Source: Candidatus Kapaibacterium sp. (GTDB lineage Bacteria > Bacteroidota > Ignavibacteria > Kapaibacteriales > UBA2268). From it: a stretch of 31,255 bases of DNA. The stretch lies in contig JBBRJR010000001.1 in the NCBI GenBank assembly GCA_038218865.1, positions 1-31,255 of the forward strand, given 5' to 3'. Below the pieces are notes generated by a model. That model was not told where the DNA came from, did not search any database, and saw only the letters and a program-made list of their open reading frames with translations. Positions 20,948-29,804 of this stretch are shown piece after piece. The position numbers and the translations under genes were made by a program. Position 1 is the first letter of the stretch. The number at the start of each line of letters is the position of its first letter.

Positions 20948-23698
20948 TTATTTTACGATAGCAACTGGCAAAGTAGTTGTATTACTACCAATTTTGGCTA
21001 TTACGTAATACGAACCGCTTGGCAAGTATGAGCCGTCAAATTGGAAGGTGTGCTCGCCCGGAGCTACAGCACCGTTTACAATTAATGCCGCTTGCTTACC
21101 GGAGGCATCAACCAAGCTGATATTCACATCTTGATTTGTATAACCGGGTATGAAGCATTTGATATTTGTATTGGAAATAAACGGATTAGGACCAACGCTC
21201 AGCGAAGAATTAATCTGATTATCCAAAATGCCTGTAGCCGTAGCAGTACCAGTAAGGTCAACTTCTGAGCTAAAATGATCAGGATCATTTGTTACAAAGG
21301 TGAATTTGCCGGTGAAATCGCCTACTGCCAAGGGGTAAAATCTTAAAATAAAATTAAAGCTTGCTGCTGGTGGAATATCTGATGGTGGCAAACTGATAAG
21401 TTTGAAGGTTTCACCAGGATTGTCATTGGAGACAGAAAGTTCACTAATTACCAACGGTGCGATACCTGTATTGGTTATTTTAACTTCTCTGTCAGCAAAT
21501 TTATTTTCTTCTAAATCATTGAAATTAATTAAAGTAACGTCTAATTTCAAACGTGGTCCAGTAGCTACCGAAGCAATACCGCTACCTTTTAAAGCAACTT
21601 TTTCTTGTTTATAAACAGGATCGTTATTGAAAATAATAATTTCCGACAATGAATATGATTTCTCTAATGTAGGAGAGAATCTAACAGTTATAGTAGAAGT
21701 TCCATCAGGAGCAATCACTGCGTCAGCTTCTTTAACAACTTCAAAAACGCCGTCAGGATCATTGTTTATTTCTAATTTAGAAATTTTAAGATCTGCATTA
21801 CCAGTATTATAAACCTCAAAAGTTAAATCTTTTGATTTGCCAATTTCTACTTGTGCAAATTCCAAAGTACTGGTTTCTACGTTTATTTCAGCATCAAATA
21901 CTTCTGGCTCGCCTACAAACCAACGCATAGCATTTTTCACAAATGTAGTTTTCATGTATTGATCCGATGTAACTTCGAGCGGGAAGCCCAAAACGACTAA
22001 TTTAGCGCCGTTTGCTTTCTCTACGCGAATAGCAGCAGTTTCATTGAAATTACCATCATAGATACCAATTTGTTTAGCAGCACTGGCGCCAGGAATTGTG
22101 AAAAAGTCCGAATATGGTGTCCAAAGTTGATTTGAAGAGTTAAATTTCGCAACAAATTGTCCCGTTATAGTGTCTTTGTCAATTCCATTTACGTTAAAAG
22201 GATGAATTGTAATCGTGCTACCACTTGTTGTTGACCAAGTTTTGGCACCACCAAAAGAAACTTCTGCTTCATTATTATAAAAATCAGTATAAGCTGTTTT
22301 CAACTCAACTGGAGTTTGAGACAAACTCATTAAATTAGCAGACACGTCGGAAGAAACAAAAACGTTTTTGCCTTTAGCTAACATTGATTTCATATAATTA
22401 ATATGTGCTGGTTGCATATATGTAATGCCGTTTTGCGTGGACGTAAATGAGAAAAATGCTACGTCGAAATCATCTGCTGTATAGGCTGTGGCAACTGCAG
22501 CAGTAAAAGGAATGACGGCTGAATTTTCATAATAAATCGTACCCGTCAGCGCTGCTTGTGAATACATCGTTCCCAAACCTGTGCCTGTGTAGAAAAAGGC
22601 ATATTTTACTGCTTCTGATAAGTAATACATAGGAAATGTAGCTGAAACAGGCAATACACCCGGTACGTCCATCGGTATAGCTGTTACGTTAACTGTTCCA
22701 AAAGCAGACGTCTCGCCAGCAGTAACAGTAAGATTAACATTGATTGAACCTCCAGCAGGGACATTAGCTTCTGTTTTATCGATGTAAGCGGACCAATCAT
22801 CCGGCAATGTGGATACATCCACACCAATCAAAGCTTTCATTTTAAATGAATTTGGGTTGGTAATCGTTACGACGCGAGAAAGTTCTTCTGTGCCGATTTT
22901 ATTTGCTTGCGATGTCGAAGAAATTGTGAATTTCGCTTCAGCCATGTTTTCTATACCTGTTAAGTCAGGAATAATTGAATTGCCGGCTTGCAAAATTTCA
23001 GGTGTGCTTGCATTTTGAACCCAAGCTACTACGAACAACATCGTAGGATTCCAATTTGCATTGTCATCAAAGCTAAATGAGAAATTCTTTGTTTCGTTTG
23101 CATTGACATTGAATGTTTGGCCAGATGACGGTGTCAAAAATTTGCGAGCTATGAAATAAAATTCTTTCTCGCCATTGTTGCCTGCTTGTGCATAATGATG
23201 AAAAGCTTCGACAACTAATACTCTTAAATTTGTACCCAAATATTTTGCCGAAGAATTAACGCTTATGTCAGCATAATTTTGTATACCATTTTTGGTTTTA
23301 TCAATTGTAATAGTCAAAGGCGAGGTTGTTCCGGCGATTTGATTGACAATTTGTTCGTAGCCGGATAGAGGAATAGGATTACCTTTGTAAGCATTGCCAT
23401 TTACTACCAAATGCGGAACTCCAGTAACTGCATATTTGGTAACCATATCGGAAGCAACTGTAGGATTTTGTCCGTTCATAACGTCTGAGCCAGGCCAGTT
23501 TACGTGGTATGATATTGGTACTATCTTATCCAAATTGGATTTGACATAAGGGTAATATGTCGGTGCCGAAGAAGCGCAAGGAGGACAACTTGCATTTGTA
23601 AAATGCTCGAAAAGTGCTTTGCGTGGCGAATCGGCTTGCGATGTGCCTATCATAGCAAATATTGCAAGCAACATTGCTAATGAGAATAAACGTTTCAT
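20948..23698 (-). CDS. T9SS-secreted protein: Omp28-like thioredoxin-fold domain (CPPC), two choice-of-anchor-D/ASH-like Ig domains, T9SS type A C-terminal domain
   Basis: Signal peptide; FEHFTNASCPPC and TGVPHLVVNG; two repeats of the F..v.....l.v.NtG...L.Is.l Ig pattern; C-terminus SVGPNPF...LVDASGKQ...LPSGSYYV...VAIVK typical of a T9SS CTD. Confidence 0.82.
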   Translation of the reverse strand: MKRLFSLAMLLAIFAMIGTSQADSPRKALFEHFTNASCPPCASSAPTYYPYVKSNLDKIVPISYHVNWPGSDVMNGQNPTVASDMVTKYAVTGVPHLVVNGNAYKGNPIPLSGYEQIVNQIAGTTSPLTITIDKTKNGIQNYADISVNSSAKYLGTNLRVLVVEAFHHYAQAGNNGEKEFYFIARKFLTPSSGQTFNVNANETKNFSFSFDDNANWNPTMLFVVAWVQNASTPEILQAGNSIIPDLTGIENMAEAKFTISSTSQANKIGTEELSRVVTITNPNSFKMKALIGVDVSTLPDDWSAYIDKTEANVPAGGSINVNLTVTAGETSAFGTVNVTAIPMDVPGVLPVSATFPMYYLSEAVKYAFFYTGTGLGTMYSQAALTGTIYYENSAVIPFTAAVATAYTADDFDVAFFSFTSTQNGITYMQPAHINYMKSMLAKGKNVFVSSDVSANLMSLSQTPVELKTAYTDFYNNEAEVSFGGAKTWSTTSGSTITIHPFNVNGIDKDTITGQFVAKFNSSNQLWTPYSDFFTIPGASAAKQIGIYDGNFNETAAIRVEKANGAKLVVLGFPLEVTSDQYMKTTFVKNAMRWFVGEPEVFDAEINVETSTLEFAQVEIGKSKDLTFEVYNTGNADLKISKLEINNDPDGVFEVVKEADAVIAPDGTSTITVRFSPTLEKSYSLSEIIIFNNDPVYKQEKVALKGSGIASVATGPRLKLDVTLINFNDLEENKFADREVKITNTGIAPLVISELSVSNDNPGETFKLISLPPSDIPPAASFNFILRFYPLAVGDFTGKFTFVTNDPDHFSSEVDLTGTATATGILDNQINSSLSVGPNPFISNTNIKCFIPGYTNQDVNISLVDASGKQAALIVNGAVAPGEHTFQFDGSYLPSGSYYVIAKIGSNTTTLPVAIVK

Positions 23699-23925: not shown

Positions 23926-24690
23926 TCACCGTAGAAGATTTTCAAATTCCAATGGATAATAAATCTTTTCCAAAACTAATCCTTCGGGCGGAGCTATCCT
24001 TGATATAATCAAACGATTCGGGCGCACCAGCTTTTCTTTTACATCTTCGAATGTTCTTTTTTTCTGTGCCAAATCTAACATAGTGCCGACAATCGAACGC
24101 ACCATTCCGTAAACAAATCTGTTTGCTTTTATGTGAAAAATAAATAATCCATCGCTACGCTTTTCCCAACGGCTTTCTTCTACCGTGCATTTATAATTAT
24201 GCGTATCCGGATTGTACTTCGAAAAAGCTGAATAATCATGCTCGCCAACGAAAAGTTCGGCTGACTGGAAAAGTAAATCTTCACTAAATGGATATTTAAA
24301 GTAACTGGCGTACAGCCGAGAAAAAACAGATTGCCGAAGCGATAGTGAGTATGAATATTCCCGTGCCACAGCGCTGAAGCGAGAATGAAACTCTGCCGGC
24401 ATTTCTCGAGCTTTCGTGATACATATATCTTTTGGTAGAATGGCGTTTAAGGCTATTATCAGTTTTTCAATTGGAATAGGGAAATCATCGGCGGCTGAAA
24501 AATTGGCTGTCTGCCCGCGTGCGTGAACGCCGGCATCAGTGCGACCGGCTCCGATAATTCCAATTTTAATGCCTGTTAATTTATATAGCGATGTTTCAAT
24601 TGTTCCTTGTATAGTTATCTGGTTCGGCTGGATTTGCCAACCCGAATAACGCGTACCATCGTATTCAATCAACATCGCAATATTTTTCAT
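23926..24690 (-). CDS. truA: tRNA pseudouridine(38-40) synthase
   Basis: IEYDGTRYSGWQIQP, GAGRTDAGVHARGQ, ANRFVYGMVRSIVG, APPEGLVL. Confidence 0.96.
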   Translation of the reverse strand: MKNIAMLIEYDGTRYSGWQIQPNQITIQGTIETSLYKLTGIKIGIIGAGRTDAGVHARGQTANFSAADDFPIPIEKLIIALNAILPKDICITKAREMPAEFHSRFSAVAREYSYSLSLRQSVFSRLYASYFKYPFSEDLLFQSAELFVGEHDYSAFSKYNPDTHNYKCTVEESRWEKRSDGLFIFHIKANRFVYGMVRSIVGTMLDLAQKKRTFEDVKEKLVRPNRLIISRIAPPEGLVLEKIYYPLEFENLLR

Positions 24691-25247
24691 TCGCTACTGG
24701 GTTCAATCAATGAATATATTACCGGATAATTTCGCCCGATTTCAGCATAATCAAGACCATAGCCAACTACGAATGCTGGGGGGATTTCTACACCAACGTA
24801 ATCAATTTTCATATCGCTTTTCATTGTATCGGGCTTCAAGAGAAAAGTTGCTATTTTTATCGAACGAGGATTGTAACGAGAAAGCTCGCGAATTAATTGC
24901 GAAACGGTGAGACCTGTATCAACAATATCTTCGATTATTATAACATCTTTGTCCTCTATACTTCCAGACATTTGTGTAACGAGGACATTTCCCGTAGAAA
25001 CCATGCCGCCGCCGTAGCTTTTAGCGCGAATAGACTCGACAAAGCAATCTAAATCTATTTTCTTTAATAAATCAACCGCAAAAAACACAGCGCCCTTGAG
25101 AGTAATAACGAAAACAGGACAAGTGCCTTTGTAGTCGCGATTGATTTCTGTGGCAACTCTTTCTACCGCTTGCTCGATTTGATTAGCATCCAAAAGCACA
25201 CCAAACGTTTTGCCGTGGATTGTTACTTGTTCAGGGTAATTATACAT
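24687..25247 (-). CDS. hpt: Hypoxanthine phosphoribosyltransferase
   Basis: ITLKGAVFF, PRPP-binding IIIEDIVDTGLT, FVVGYGLDYAE. Stop overlaps the truA start (ATGA). Confidence 0.95.
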   Translation of the reverse strand: MYNYPEQVTIHGKTFGVLLDANQIEQAVERVATEINRDYKGTCPVFVITLKGAVFFAVDLLKKIDLDCFVESIRAKSYGGGMVSTGNVLVTQMSGSIEDKDVIIIEDIVDTGLTVSQLIRELSRYNPRSIKIATFLLKPDTMKSDMKIDYVGVEIPPAFVVGYGLDYAEIGRNYPVIYSLIEPSSE

Positions 25248-25250
25248 ATA

Positions 25251-28004
25251 TTATTTCTCGTTGTACCTTATTTCAATTTTTAAAATACTTTGCGATTCCG
25301 GTTTTACTTTGAATTTTTCACTAATTCGCTTGCCGAGTATCCAAATTATCTCTGTTTGAGCAGCCAAAACCAAAACATTTTGTCTATCAACAAAATCTAC
25401 TTTTTCATTAGTTAAAAAATCGGTTATTTTCATCGTACCTGTCATACCGAGTGGCTTAAATACGTCTCCCTCTTGCCAAGTACGCAAAAATAAAGCCGGT
25501 GGCACGCTTTGCATATCAAAATATTCTACATTTGGATTCTTACTGAATTCCATTTGCTTTCTGGTAACTTCTTTGAGAACAATTGTAATATTGCTAACTT
25601 TGAACTTCCCTATTCTATCAATTACCGTGTTTATTTCTTTCAAATATTGCTTTCTGGCAAAAACAATAGTGTTTCTGTCCCTGATAGCAGTAATTGTTTT
25701 AGTAACTTCGCACTTGGCGCCAATTTCTGAATCTTGTAGCGCCACGACTCTATCGATAGATTTCAGCGAAGGCAACTGCACTCGCAAGTATTTCATCAAA
25801 GCGGATTGTATCATCTCGCCTTGGATGAAGCGGTCGAATGTTTGGAAAATCGGCAGCTTGATTGTAAATTTATCAGTTTGGACGTCTGTCAATACGTTAG
25901 GCAAATTATTTCGTACGTAGCCATGGATAATCCTATCGGCTCCTTGCATCAGCTTGGATGTACGATTTATAATTTCCACAATCTTTGGATTGTAATCATT
26001 TTTTAGTTTTGGAATAAGGTCATGCCGTACTCTATTACGTGTATATCCCTGTAAAGAGTTAGTTTCATCTTCGTGCCATTTTATCTTACGTAATTTCGCA
26101 TATTTGATAAGCGTTGCTTTGTCGAAATTTATGAACGGTCGGATAAGAAGTACGTCCTTTACAAATTGCCTGCGGAAAGGTATGCCGCTTAAGCCAGTCA
26201 GCCCCGCCCCGCGGAGTAAATTCATTAGGAATGTCTCGGCTGAATCATCGGAAGTATGCGCAGTGGCAACGAAATCTGAATTTAAATTGCGCGAGGTACG
26301 CTCCAAAAAGCTATAACGTAAAAATCGAGCTGCCGCTTCTATGCTGACCGCATTCTTTTCGGCATAAGTGCGAACTTTTCCGCCTGCTACGTAAACCGGC
26401 AAATTATACGCTGCCGCCACGTCTGAAACAAATTGCTGGTCATTATCGCTCGAATCGCCGCGTAAATTATGATTGTAATGTGCTACGAAAATGCTGAATT
26501 TATACTTATCCGACAGCAAAGCCAATATATCGAGCAAAACTATAGAATCGACGCCACCACTGACGGCAACCACTATTTTTGACGATCTATCGACATACAT
26601 TTCATGTATTAAAAAATGCTCTACATCCGACAAAAATTTGGTTATAAACTCATTTTTTTTCTCCTCGACAGTAAGCAGTTTTTCCGGTGCAATTGTATAC
26701 AAATCTACCAGCGGCTCAATGGTTTTCATTCGAACTGGCGGTGTTGCTGGTTCTTGGTTGAATTTGGAAACAATAGCATCTTTTATGGACGAACTCGCTG
26801 TTTCTTTTTCTTCTTCACTAACAGGCTTTGGCTTATTATTTTCGTCCTTAGTTACTACGATAAATTGATTCTTCTTAGTTTTTTTGCCTCTTCTTTTTTT
26901 GCTCTTTCTAACTTTATCAAGTATCGATTCTTCACTTTCAGGAATTTCTTTATCCTTAGCATCATCTTGTTCGCCATCGGTGGGTTCAGTTTTGTCAATC
27001 TCTCGATTTGCCTTTTCGCCTTCGATCCCTTCGCTCGAAACAGATTTTTCGTGTTTGATTTGCTCTGACGGAATGCCGTCTGATGCCTCCCCAGTCGGCT
27101 CGTTTTCATCAATTACAATAGGCAGCAATGTTGTCTTTTTCGGTCTTCCACCTCTTTTTTTGCGAGTGTGGGGTTGCTCTTTGTTTGCCACCTCAGACGA
27201 AGGTACGACATTTTTCGCATTTTCCAAGCCTTCGGGTTTAGAAAGCTCAGAGCCTTTTTCACTACTTTCGTCTGTTGAAAAAGTTTTCTTACGACTTTCT
27301 TGCAACGTCGCCTGTTCGCTTGCTCGCAAGTTTTCAGACCTCTTTTCAGGAGTGCCGCTCAAAGGCAATTTTTTCTCATCATCAACTGGATTAGGCGAAA
27401 TTACGGTTTGTGTTTCCTTAGCTTGCCTTGCTTTATTATCTTGAGGTTTACCAACATTTTTTTTGGGTCTGCCGGGACGTCCTTTAGCAGGCTTAGAAGT
27501 TTCGGTTATCGCTTTTTTCGTTTCAATTGGCAAATTAGCAGTTTCGCTTTCTTCTTTTACCATTGGCGACGTAACGTGCAAATCTGTTTGAATGTGTTTT
27601 TTCGGAGGTCTGCCCGGACGCCTTTTCAGCTTAATTTCTATTGAATGACTAATATTTTTAATATCTTTTTGCAATGAAACTTTTTCGGAAGGAATATTTT
27701 TCTCTGCCGAATCATTAGAAACTACTGCAATGGGTTTGTCAGCGTTCTTAGCGTTATTTGCATTTATTTTTTTTGAATCACTCGTTTTATCAACGATTGA
27801 TTCCTCTTTTTTTATTTTTGGTGGTCTTCCGGGTTTTCTTTTTGCAGACGTCGTAGCCTCAGTACCAAATTTTCTTTTCCGCGAATTATTTTTTTGGGGC
27901 TTCGCTTCGTCCACGGGAGTTACTTCATCAGCGGCAAGGAATAATATTTCTTCATCGGTCAACCTTTTGGCTGATGAATACTTTTTTTTGGATAAATTTT
28001 TCAT
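25251..28004 (-). CDS. tilS: tRNA(Ile)-lysidine synthase with a ~450-aa N-terminal low-complexity extension bearing AT-hook-like motifs
   Basis: PP-loop VAVSGGVDS (Ser482), HYNHNLRG, EAAARFLRY, TAHTSDDSAET, LIRPF, DETN...YTRNRVR, TilS C-domain RTWQEGDVFKPLGM. One uninterrupted 917-aa frame with an AGGGG SD before ATG 28004. Confidence 0.93.
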   Translation of the reverse strand: MKNLSKKKYSSAKRLTDEEILFLAADEVTPVDEAKPQKNNSRKRKFGTEATTSAKRKPGRPPKIKKEESIVDKTSDSKKINANNAKNADKPIAVVSNDSAEKNIPSEKVSLQKDIKNISHSIEIKLKRRPGRPPKKHIQTDLHVTSPMVKEESETANLPIETKKAITETSKPAKGRPGRPKKNVGKPQDNKARQAKETQTVISPNPVDDEKKLPLSGTPEKRSENLRASEQATLQESRKKTFSTDESSEKGSELSKPEGLENAKNVVPSSEVANKEQPHTRKKRGGRPKKTTLLPIVIDENEPTGEASDGIPSEQIKHEKSVSSEGIEGEKANREIDKTEPTDGEQDDAKDKEIPESEESILDKVRKSKKRRGKKTKKNQFIVVTKDENNKPKPVSEEEKETASSSIKDAIVSKFNQEPATPPVRMKTIEPLVDLYTIAPEKLLTVEEKKNEFITKFLSDVEHFLIHEMYVDRSSKIVVAVSGGVDSIVLLDILALLSDKYKFSIFVAHYNHNLRGDSSDNDQQFVSDVAAAYNLPVYVAGGKVRTYAEKNAVSIEAAARFLRYSFLERTSRNLNSDFVATAHTSDDSAETFLMNLLRGAGLTGLSGIPFRRQFVKDVLLIRPFINFDKATLIKYAKLRKIKWHEDETNSLQGYTRNRVRHDLIPKLKNDYNPKIVEIINRTSKLMQGADRIIHGYVRNNLPNVLTDVQTDKFTIKLPIFQTFDRFIQGEMIQSALMKYLRVQLPSLKSIDRVVALQDSEIGAKCEVTKTITAIRDRNTIVFARKQYLKEINTVIDRIGKFKVSNITIVLKEVTRKQMEFSKNPNVEYFDMQSVPPALFLRTWQEGDVFKPLGMTGTMKITDFLTNEKVDFVDRQNVLVLAAQTEIIWILGKRISEKFKVKPESQSILKIEIRYNEK

Positions 28005-28290
28005 TCTGTCCCCTTTTAATAATATACTAAAATAAATAACGTTTAAATAATAAAAATAACTTTATTTATTATGAACTTGTTTAGATTTTAGTATAGCTTA
28101 GCAATAACTGTTTATATAATACGATTATATGTAATAATATATATTACAAATATATGATAATTATTTGAAAATATTAATAAATATTTTATAATAAAAAAAA
28201 TTAAAAAACATATTGCCATTAAGCAATATATCGAATTTTAATTCGTTTATAAATTAAAATTATTTTACAATATTACAAGGAATAACTAAG

Positions 28291-28674
28291 ATGGAATTTT
28301 TAACAAAAGAGACATTTACCGAAAAAGTATTTGATTTTGAAAAAAGTCAAGAATGGCAGTTCAAAGGTACAAAGCCAGCAATCATCGATTTTTACGCTGA
28401 TTGGTGCGGCCCCTGCAAAATGGTAGCTCCGATATTGGAGGAACTTTCCAATGAATACAACGGACTAGTAGATATATATAAAATTGATACCGAAGAACAG
28501 CAAGAGCTTGCCGCTATGTTTGGCATACGAAGCATACCTTCAATTTTATTTATCCCGATGGACGATAAACCGCAAATGGCAGTCGGCGCAATCCCGAAAG
28601 AAGGCTTTATAAAAGCGATTGAAGACATTTTTAGTGTAAAAAATCCTAATCAAAGCAATATTATATTAAATTAA
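28291..28674 (+). CDS. trxA: Thioredoxin
   Basis: IDFYADWCGPCK active site and cis-Pro loop IRSIPS. AAGGA SD. Confidence 0.96.
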   Translation: MEFLTKETFTEKVFDFEKSQEWQFKGTKPAIIDFYADWCGPCKMVAPILEELSNEYNGLVDIYKIDTEEQQELAAMFGIRSIPSILFIPMDDKPQMAVGAIPKEGFIKAIEDIFSVKNPNQSNIILN

Positions 28675-28712
28675 TTTATAATATTTATATTTAATTTAAT
28701 GTTTTAAATTTT

Positions 28713-28751
28713 AAAAAAAAGCAATTCTGACCCCGAAGAATTGCTTTTTTT
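28713..28751 (+). terminator. Rho-independent terminator after trxA
   Basis: A8-GCAATTCT-gaccccga-AGAATTGC-T7. Confidence 0.88.
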
Positions 28752-28994
28752 GCACTTTTTATATATAAATCATTAAATAATTCATTTTTTAGTTGAACGG
28801 ACATATATCCAAGAAAACATATAAATTACTTATCAGATAGAAATTGTAAAATTATCGATTTTTTATATACGAGAATTTTTGTAATTTTACTATTTTGTAA
28901 TCATCATAAAAGATAAAACTTTTTATTGATGAATATTAAATGATATAGACCTGAATTTTGATATAAAATAAAAAATATATTTGGAGTTATAAAA

Positions 28995-29804
28995 ATGGTT
29001 GATAGAAATTTATACGCACTAATATTGGGCGTTTCGAGCGGATTTGGTCGTGCGTGCGCTGTTGAACTAGCACGAATCGGCTACAATATTTATGGTGTCC
29101 ATTTGGATACCGGCACTAATAAAGAAAAAACGGAAGAATTTCGCCGCGGTTTGGAGCAGTTGAATATAAAAGCTACTTTTTTCAACGTAAACGCTGCCGA
29201 TGACCAAAAGCGGAAAGAAATTATCCAAGTCATTAGTGATAATCAGGCTGCCAACCCGAAGCAGGTTTTGCGCGTACTTATTCACTCGCTGGCTTTTGGC
29301 GCTATTCGTCCTTTTTTCTCGGAGAATTCGGAAGAAATGGTAAATAAAAGGCAAATCGAAATGACAATGGACGTGATGAGTAATAGCCTTGTTTATTGGG
29401 CACAAGACTTGTTTAAATTACGTTTGCTGGCAGAAAATTCCCGTATTTTCGGTCTGACAAGCATCGGTGGCTCGCGTGCTATGGCAAATTACGGCGCTGT
29501 TTCGGCTGCCAAAGCATCTCTCGAAGCCTACATACGCCAAATTGCTGTCGAGCTTGCGCCTTACAAAATTACTGCTAATGCAATCTTGGCAGGCTTGACC
29601 GACACGCCTGCTGCACAGAAAATTCCCGGCTTCCCGAAAATGCTGAAACACGCTAAGCAACACAATCCTTTTAACAGAAACACTGTTCCAGAAGACGTGG
29701 CACAAGCTATTTCTTTGCTGATTGACGAGAAATTTTATTGGATAACCGGACAAACTATCGGCGTCGATGGCGGCGAAAATATCCTTAATTTTATTGAGTC
29801 ATAA
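28995..29804 (+). CDS. Enoyl-ACP reductase-like SDR (FabL/FabI type)
   Basis: LILGVSSGFG, IHSLAFG, Y-x6-K motif NYGAVSAAK, VELAPYKITANAI, WITGQTIGVDGG. Confidence 0.85.
   Translation: MVDRNLYALILGVSSGFGRACAVELARIGYNIYGVHLDTGTNKEKTEEFRRGLEQLNIKATFFNVNAADDQKRKEIIQVISDNQAANPKQVLRVLIHSLAFGAIRPFFSENSEEMVNKRQIEMTMDVMSNSLVYWAQDLFKLRLLAENSRIFGLTSIGGSRAMANYGAVSAAKASLEAYIRQIAVELAPYKITANAILAGLTDTPAAQKIPGFPKMLKHAKQHNPFNRNTVPEDVAQAISLLIDEKFYWITGQTIGVDGGENILNFIES

Follow-up and report, generated by a model that had tools for sequence, protein, structure and literature searches.

A predicted disordered N-terminal arm with AT-hook-like motifs on the tRNA-modifying enzyme TilS of a Candidatus Kapaibacterium and its relatives

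The stretch of DNA analyzed here (31,255 nucleotides from Candidatus Kapaibacterium sp., contig JBBRJR010000001.1 of assembly GCA_038218865.1; hereafter, the window) encodes the tRNA-modifying enzyme TilS with about 455 additional residues in front of the canonical enzyme. This N-terminal arm is predicted to be disordered and carries four hooks, i.e., motifs with a GRP core that resemble the AT-hook, followed by an acidic tract and a basic cluster. A known enzyme is joined here to a known motif. No description of TilS with AT-hooks or with arms of this kind was found in the literature searched, and the combination is recurrent; new here, in our opinion, are the recurrent hook arrays on TilS in lineages that do not appear to form one clade. 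Nearly all bacteria have TilS as an essential enzyme, through which tRNA-Ile2 reads AUA and not AUG; it is usually regarded as a plain cytoplasmic enzyme.

Results

The four hooks of the window protein, all encoded on the minus strand, are KRKPGRPPK (hook 1; residues 55-63, 27816..27842; a copy in DNA repeat family D1), KRRPGRPPKK (hook 2; residues 127-136, 27597..27626), which contains the only invariant seven-residue block of the variable arm, KGRPGRPKK (hook 3; residues 174-182, 27459..27485), which has a double GRP, and RKKRGGRPKK (hook 4; residues 281-290, 27135..27164; translation and motif scan). These are exactly the sequences and positions given by an earlier reading made by a model from the DNA without database searches (the sequence-only reading). 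The GRP cores of the arm comprise three PGRP, one KGRP, and one GGRP. An AT-hook is a GRP core with basic flanks that binds the DNA minor groove (PMC4615771), and in all four motifs the core is immediately flanked by basic residues, as this definition requires.

The hooks are not chance. The strict hook pattern, [RPGK]GRP[KRP][KR], was observed four times against 0.0013 expected from composition-preserving shuffles, of which 0/100,000 reached four, and none of the genome's other 5,459 open reading frames (ORFs) with 80 aa or more contains it. Recent tandem duplication was considered as the origin of the hooks and rejected, because the DNA copies are only 69-76% identical, use different synonymous codons and have unrelated flanks, the similarity being confined to cores of ~29 nt. 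The hooks of the relative G166, which are part of 165-nt tandem repeats with 80-93% match, are different in this respect.

Downstream of the hooks, which span residues 55-290, lies the acidic tract (residues 296-362; 26919..27119, minus strand), with 22 D/E vs 7 K/R and a net charge of -15, and then the basic cluster (residues 363-380, net charge +10), so that the whole module extends over ~380 residues; both charged segments had been pointed out in the sequence-only reading, and the charge counts bear them out. The basic cluster and the conserved block after it, FIVVTKDENNKPKPVSEEEKETASSSIKDAIVSKF, together occupy 26766..26918 on the minus strand (alignment, charge count). Many columns across residues 364-413 are invariant, the consensus after the basic cluster being FIVVxxKDENKPKPVSEEEKxTASSSIKDAISS, and the block is present in the relative P0004 too.

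AlphaFold2 modeling with a 48-sequence alignment gave predicted local distance difference test (pLDDT) values below 50-58 over residues 1-430 and of 85-97 for the TilS core; residues 1 to ~455 are accordingly predicted to be disordered. Two short helices are predicted in the arm, at residues 17-23 and 401-412, the latter with low confidence (pLDDT about 53-55), and both fall inside blocks conserved among the closest relatives. The first belongs to an N-terminal motif, AKRLTDEEILFLAA (residues 12-25; 27930..27971, minus strand), in which A12, K13, R14, D17, I20, L21, and L23 are invariant in the alignment with relatives. This motif (conserved block AKRLTDEEILFLA) was found only in G001 and P0002-P0004, i.e., in the window's immediate clade. 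A third conserved motif, IEPLVDLYTI (residues 429-438; 26691..26720, minus strand; consensus IEPLxDxYTI), lies shortly before the TilS core, at about the place where short-armed relatives begin. Residues 1-450 matched no Pfam or NCBIfam family, and a search of PDB sequences with residues 1-440 gave no match at E up to 1.

The core itself (residues about 457-917; 25254..26636, minus strand) was delimited by Pfam, NCBIfam, alignment to the TilS structure 3A2K, and AlphaFold2. Its parts are a PP-loop ATP-pyrophosphatase domain, a central helical region, and TilS_C. Profile matches to TilS domains span residues 476-907 (PF01171, E = 2e-53; PF11734 (TilS_C), E = 1e-7, 31.3 bits vs a cut-off of 22; TIGR02432, 195.3 bits vs 93.6; TIGR02433, 30.6 bits vs 20.2). 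Residues 22-456 of the core segment align end to end to residues 5-442 of 3A2K, which places the start of the canonical enzyme near residue 457 and leaves about 455 residues extra. In common with other type-I TilS proteins (Geobacillus kaustophilus 3A2K, Aquifex 1WY5, Escherichia coli MesJ 1NI5), the window protein has an SGGxDS PP-loop, the N-domain, and TilS_C. Canonical TilS begins ~20-25 residues before the PP-loop, whereas the PP-loop SGGVDS of the window protein lies at residues 482-487 (26544-26561, minus strand), where the sequence-only reading had put it, with the disordered residues in front. The core is that of a complete, normal type-I TilS and is presumably active. Lysidine formation on tRNA-Ile2(CAU) is predicted, with indirect support from the finding that this is the sole TilS in the genome (profile search; assembly 92.6% complete).

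The arm is a genuine protein and forms one polypeptide with TilS. The tilS ORF is intact (25251..28004, minus strand; 917 aa plus stop; ORF listing and translation), and an SD-like (Shine-Dalgarno) sequence read from the DNA, AAGGGGA (28009..28015, minus strand), lies 5 nt 5' of the distal ATG (28004-28002). By a codon-usage log-likelihood for which the long ORFs of the genome served as training set, the arm scores +0.34 bits per codon in frame and the TilS domain +0.20, vs at most 0.02 bits per codon in the arm's five other frames. The overlapping plus-strand ORFs (150, 186, 114, and 101 aa) were therefore rejected as spurious, their frames being without coding signal. Local misassembly or a frameshift was likewise rejected, because an equally long tilS occurs in the order tilS-hpt(-truA) in three other samples (two Logan assemblies and one JGI metagenome), so that four independent assemblies agree on the long gene. 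On every one of these counts the sequence-only reading, which had described a single unbroken frame fusing TilS to a ~450-aa extension and an SD at the distal ATG, holds: no stop or frameshift separates the two parts, and codon usage and relatives agree with the fusion.

Three near relatives were retrieved by database searches, and long arms with three to six hooks are kept in all of them, which bears out the fusion and the GRP motifs, whose conservation the sequence-only reading had proposed to check. P0002 (918 aa; core 83% identical) has six hooks, one RRGRP and five RRPGRP; P0003 (865 aa) has three, KRPRGRPKK, KRRPGRPKK, and KRGRGRPRK; P0004 (1045 aa) has three RRGRP hooks. The numbers of canonical RGRP hooks are thus one, two, and three in P0002, P0003, and P0004, respectively, and six in G003, a hook-bearer of a separate lineage. 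The gathering score of the AT-hook family, PF02178 (AT_hook), is 17.4 bits; hook 1 of P0003 passes it with 18.8 bits, and hook 1 of P0004, with 15.9 bits, falls below it. The window motifs are thus P/G-GRP, non-canonical versions of hooks whose form in sister sequences is canonical. Scans of genome contigs and metagenome contigs yielded two distant short TilS (L021 and L022) and no close relatives.

Arm identity among the close relatives is only about 31% overall. KRRPGRP (K127-P133) is invariant in P0001, P0002, and P0003, although its flanks differ. Hook 4 of the window aligns with SRRPGRPRK of P0002, with R284, R287, and K290 invariant; hook 3 aligns with a decayed KNRPNRDQK in P0002, and where P0002 and P0003 have a hook in common, the aligned window sequence is acidic. 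Individual hooks evidently turn over between close relatives.

Hook arrays, defined as at least three hooks, were found in further TilS proteins. In the window clade, P/G-GRP and RGRP hooks occur at three to six per protein; G211 (P0005) has seven copies of KSKRGRKPK, G166 (P0007) about nine of RKRPGRPKK and variants thereof, inside 165-nt tandem repeats, and G003 six of the canonical RRGRPPK. In genome-wide, back-translated searches of G003, G166, and G211, tilS holds 6/7, 4/5, and 5/5 of the matches to the respective hook pattern, and reversed-pattern controls gave 2, 2, and 0 matches. In each hook-bearing genome, therefore, the hooks appear confined almost only to tilS.

In trees of the TilS core, the window protein groups with P0002-P0004 with 98-99% support, and the next branch, G001, is hookless. 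Constraining all hook-bearers together costs 135.7 log-likelihood units, and a single origin of the arrays was rejected by the approximately unbiased test (p-AU 0.0004), a result that is indicative only, since the group of hook-bearers was defined after the data had been seen. Parsimony requires four changes, at least three of which are forced by well-supported branches; the tree is unrooted, so that these changes stand for gains or losses alike. The arrays thus belong to three or four TilS lineages at least, which do not appear to make up a single clade. Repeated gain of hooks is favored, because the hook flavors differ and their flanks are unrelated.

The G166 tilS (L037 328-1439; 5.46-Mb genome) encodes the same protein as P0007, which has already been deposited in NCBI and ENA. 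Its arm consists of 5.2 copies of the 165-nt tandem repeat with 80% match, organized in higher-order units of 354 and 225 nt at 91-93%. Each repeat bears an RKRPGRPKK-type hook, and there is also a perfect 15-nt array, which codes for (AKKTT)n. The arm is a hook array in recent expansion.

Long arms are not confined to the hook-bearers. TilS was found in 240 of 251 sampled genomes of the same order, many of them with open frames of 700-1500 codons. In a census of about 80 genomes of the order together with database proteins, 79 distinct arms reached 150 aa or more; their median length is 466 aa (range 193-1004). Nearly all of them (76/79) carry a net positive charge. Hydrophobic residues account for a median fraction of 0.20, and 28/79 arms start with MAK or MAR. 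Their sequences are mutually unrelated, being Lys/Ala-rich and H1-like, Gln/Lys-rich, Asn-rich, or made of various repeats. In 115 high-quality genomes from elsewhere in the class and phylum, TilS lies in an open frame of about 300-535 codons, with few exceptions of 614-671. Since long arms are common in the order and these frames are short outside it, the long, basic, fast-evolving TilS arm is an order-level trait, not seen outside the order in the genomes sampled. This picture of basic disordered arms across the order, mostly free of hooks, is wider than that of the sequence-only reading. Metagenome assemblies appear to be the only source from which these organisms are known.

Discussion

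The GRP hooks are specific to TilS and appear to be under constraint at the level of the motif. Selection on the motif is suggested by its invariance amid variable flanks, its near-exclusive occurrence in TilS, and its presence in separate lineages. We infer that the arm probably binds some nucleic acid, DNA or RNA. As to which, we tentatively prefer the view that it tethers TilS to the AT-rich chromosome, i.e., to the nucleoid. The chromosome is favored as target because hooks with an acidic tract are the DNA-binding design of HMGA and CarD; in Myxococcus xanthus CarD, an acidic segment and four RGRP hooks make up the DNA-binding domain (PMC4374960). It is favored also because the Lys/Ala-rich, H1-like arms that sister TilS lineages have instead of hooks echo an interchange in which, going by what is cited in PMC4374960 (ref. 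5, Garcia-Heras 2009), the HMGA-like domain is replaced by an H1-like domain in other myxobacteria.

On this chromosomal reading, the arm would act as a sequence-non-specific nucleic-acid tether. The three to six dispersed GRP hooks and the basic cluster would hold on to AT-rich duplex in its narrow minor groove, and the acidic tract would moderate binding, as in HMGA-type proteins. With the AT-rich chromosome as preferred target, the sole TilS would be held on the nucleoid, where tRNA-Ile2 is transcribed, and could convert C34 to lysidine before MetRS charges the unmodified tRNA. Mischarging of unmodified tRNA-Ile2 by MetRS is established TilS biology; a link between the arm and early modification of this tRNA is speculation.

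Several observations weigh against the chromosome as target. As the sequence-only reading had cautioned, canonical RGRP is absent from the window's four hooks, which have P or G at the position of the first Arg. None of the four matches PF02178 even at E up to 10, so that the AT-hook prediction proposed in that reading failed for the window and succeeded for hook 1 of P0003. The window hooks lie 44-108 residues apart and are not clustered as in HMGA and CarD. Most TilS arms of the order are without any hooks, and the function of the arm across the order can therefore not be AT-specific minor-groove binding. AT-hooks bind structured RNA too (PMC4615771) and the substrate of TilS is RNA, so that DNA is not favored by direct evidence. 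Other long basic disordered regions in the genome, moreover, belong to RNA- or RNA polymerase-associated proteins (IF-2, an RsmI-like methylase, and a DksA-like protein).

A second explanation is that the arm captures tRNA or other RNA and raises the local substrate concentration, like the Lys-rich N-terminal appendages of eukaryotic LysRS and AspRS. Most arms of the order, being basic and hookless, would fit such general polyanion binding, and similar regions occur on IF-2 and the RsmI-like rRNA methylase of the same genome. The catalytic partner of TilS is a tRNA, and the core aligns end to end with tRNA-bound 3A2K. Both canonical and extended AT-hooks bind RNA, the extended ones ~10x better than DNA (PMC4615771), and prokaryotic LysRS lacks the disordered N-terminal tRNA-interaction domain of its eukaryotic counterpart (PMC6213541). 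We regard RNA capture as possible, if somewhat doubtful, since arms of 450-1000 residues far exceed known tRNA-binding appendages, and AT-hook arrays with an acidic tract, like Lys/Ala-rich H1-like tracts, are classically DNA-binding designs.

It is harder to see the arm as a matter of composition only, with the hooks incidental, whether it served as entropic bristle, solubility tag, or condensate scaffold or offered a protein partner a platform (through the N-terminal helix and the 381-413 block). Length and net charge are indeed kept through extremely fast sequence turnover, hooks decay or appear between close relatives, and the two short conserved helix-prone motifs resemble linear interaction motifs. 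Such an arm would nevertheless leave unexplained why the flanks vary and the hook motif does not, why hooks occur almost only in TilS across four genomes, and why arrays of a motif whose known activity is nucleic-acid binding appear in separate lineages; we consider this explanation quite improbable. Least credible by far is an internal start, such as M426, as the sole or main source of functional TilS, with 1.3 kb upstream of it that would be a leader, a separate product, or an annotation artefact: some relatives' arms are only 13-55 residues long and start about where M426 lies, and the lineage may not depend on Shine-Dalgarno sequences, but the in-frame coding statistics of the arm are as good as those of the core and no other frame codes, frames of 700-1500 codons are kept open in about 80 genomes, motifs at the extreme N-terminus (including the MAK or MAR starts) are conserved, and an SD-like sequence, present before the distal ATG, was looked for before M426 and not found. 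A minor short isoform may exist besides full-length TilS.

The sequence-only reading had likened the extension to HMGA and CarD. The order of hooks, acidic tract, and basic cluster supports this comparison; sequence matching and the wide spacing of the hooks do not. As no homology to HMGA or CarD was found (residues 1-450 vs Pfam/NCBIfam and 1-440 vs PDB), the likeness is architectural only. The roles put forward in the same reading (nucleoid-associated protein, transcription factor, or condensate) are hypothetical. The window motifs share with the AT-hook (PF02178; HMGA1) the GRP core, the K/R and P flanks, the presence in several copies, and the location in a disordered basic region, and the close relatives' hooks are canonical (KRPRGRPKK, KRGRGRPRK, RRGRPRK), one of them passing the Pfam cut-off. 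They differ in having P or G instead of R before GRP, in lacking a PF02178 match, and in a spacing well above the about 10-25 residues of AT-hooks. With CarD, the window protein has in common that a bacterial folded domain is joined to a disordered module of acidic segment and hooks, which in CarD are RGRP (PMC4374960). Unlike CarD, it has no CarD_CdnL_TRCF domain, its module is N-terminal and about three times longer, and its partner domain is a tRNA-modifying enzyme instead of an RNA polymerase-binding domain.

A different comparison is offered by the appendage of eukaryotic LysRS, which is about 65-70 residues long. It, too, is a basic disordered N-terminal add-on, found likewise in related class IIb synthetases and absent from orthologues elsewhere (PMC6213541). 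The LysRS appendage has no GRP hooks and belongs to a different enzyme class, so that the comparison is an analogy only.

Taken across the order, a long, positively charged disordered arm, apparently under selection, has been added to an essential enzyme. If the arm binds DNA, it would exemplify a spatial organization of bacterial tRNA maturation. It would then also join CarD as the second example in bacteria of an HMGA/H1 module in eukaryotic style, whose hook and H1-like versions can replace each other. Should it bind tRNA, it would correspond in bacteria to the RNA-binding tails appended to eukaryotic synthetases. In either case, arms of the order form a natural series for testing such tails, from no arm through a Lys-rich arm and PGRP hooks to canonical RGRP hooks. 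In a more far-reaching version, which we think unlikely, TilS would be anchored to the chromosome through repeatedly gained AT-hooks, modify tRNA-Ile2 at or near its site of transcription, and, being the one AT-hook protein of the genome, serve at the same time as a nucleoid architectural protein; a bacterial tRNA-modification enzyme would then be moonlighting as a chromatin protein.

Genomic context and further observations

The genes tilS, hpt, and truA form one operon on the minus strand. The hpt-like phosphoribosyltransferase gene (24687..25247; PF00156) begins 3 nt past the tilS stop, and the gene for a truA-like tRNA pseudouridine synthase (23926..24690; PF01416) overlaps hpt by 4 nt. 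The order tilS-hpt is also found in the genome of P0007, and the pairing is common in other bacteria.

Upstream, a gene named thioredoxin-like from the WCGPC motif in its translation (28291-28674, plus strand) is divergent from tilS. The intergenic region between the two (28005..28290; 286 bp, ~24% GC) is among the window's most AT-rich stretches. The GC fraction of 28001-29000 is 0.241, and in the genome as a whole (2.46 Mb, GC about 40%) intergenic stretches are near 24%. Several -10/-35-like sites, which are consensus matches alone, lie on the minus strand of the intergenic region, which presumably holds the tilS promoter. If the TilS hooks bind AT-rich DNA, this region would be an obvious self-target.

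Downstream of the operon (20948-23698, minus strand) lies the gene for a 916-aa protein that has a C-terminal sorting domain of the type IX secretion system (T9SS; Por_Secre_tail) and further contains Ig-like/DUF1573 domains and an Omp28-like region. In G166 (L023), tilS is likewise flanked by T9SS-tail proteins. Such proteins are in keeping with membership of the Bacteroidota/FCB group.

Long basic regions of low hydrophobicity occur in five other proteins of the window's genome (G000), none of which has GRP hooks: IF-2 (about 470 aa), an RsmI-like TP_methylase (about 290 aa, C-terminal), a DksA/TraR-type zinc-finger protein (about 270 aa, N-terminal), a family-2 glycosyltransferase, and a DUF4175 protein. 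Their loci are C211:1215-2687 (L025), C21:8999-10162 (L026), C168:3428-4738 (L027), C92:4418-7954 (L024), and C51:5640-8855 (L028).

Repeats of other kinds were seen in TilS arms of the order. NTFSV(D/G)I(E/R)DV(K/R)VI(R/K) repeats follow the hooks of P0005 (L032 of G211), the arm of P0009 (L057) contains PKLSYWQQRRLQKKLKQ repeats, and RELKLVLR(S/T)ELEEIE is repeated in the arms of P0011, P0012, and P0014. In the order-wide search, single in-frame stops (TAA, TAG) were seen within the TilS match of L034 (G182 tilS) and of G205:C237:7400-8758.

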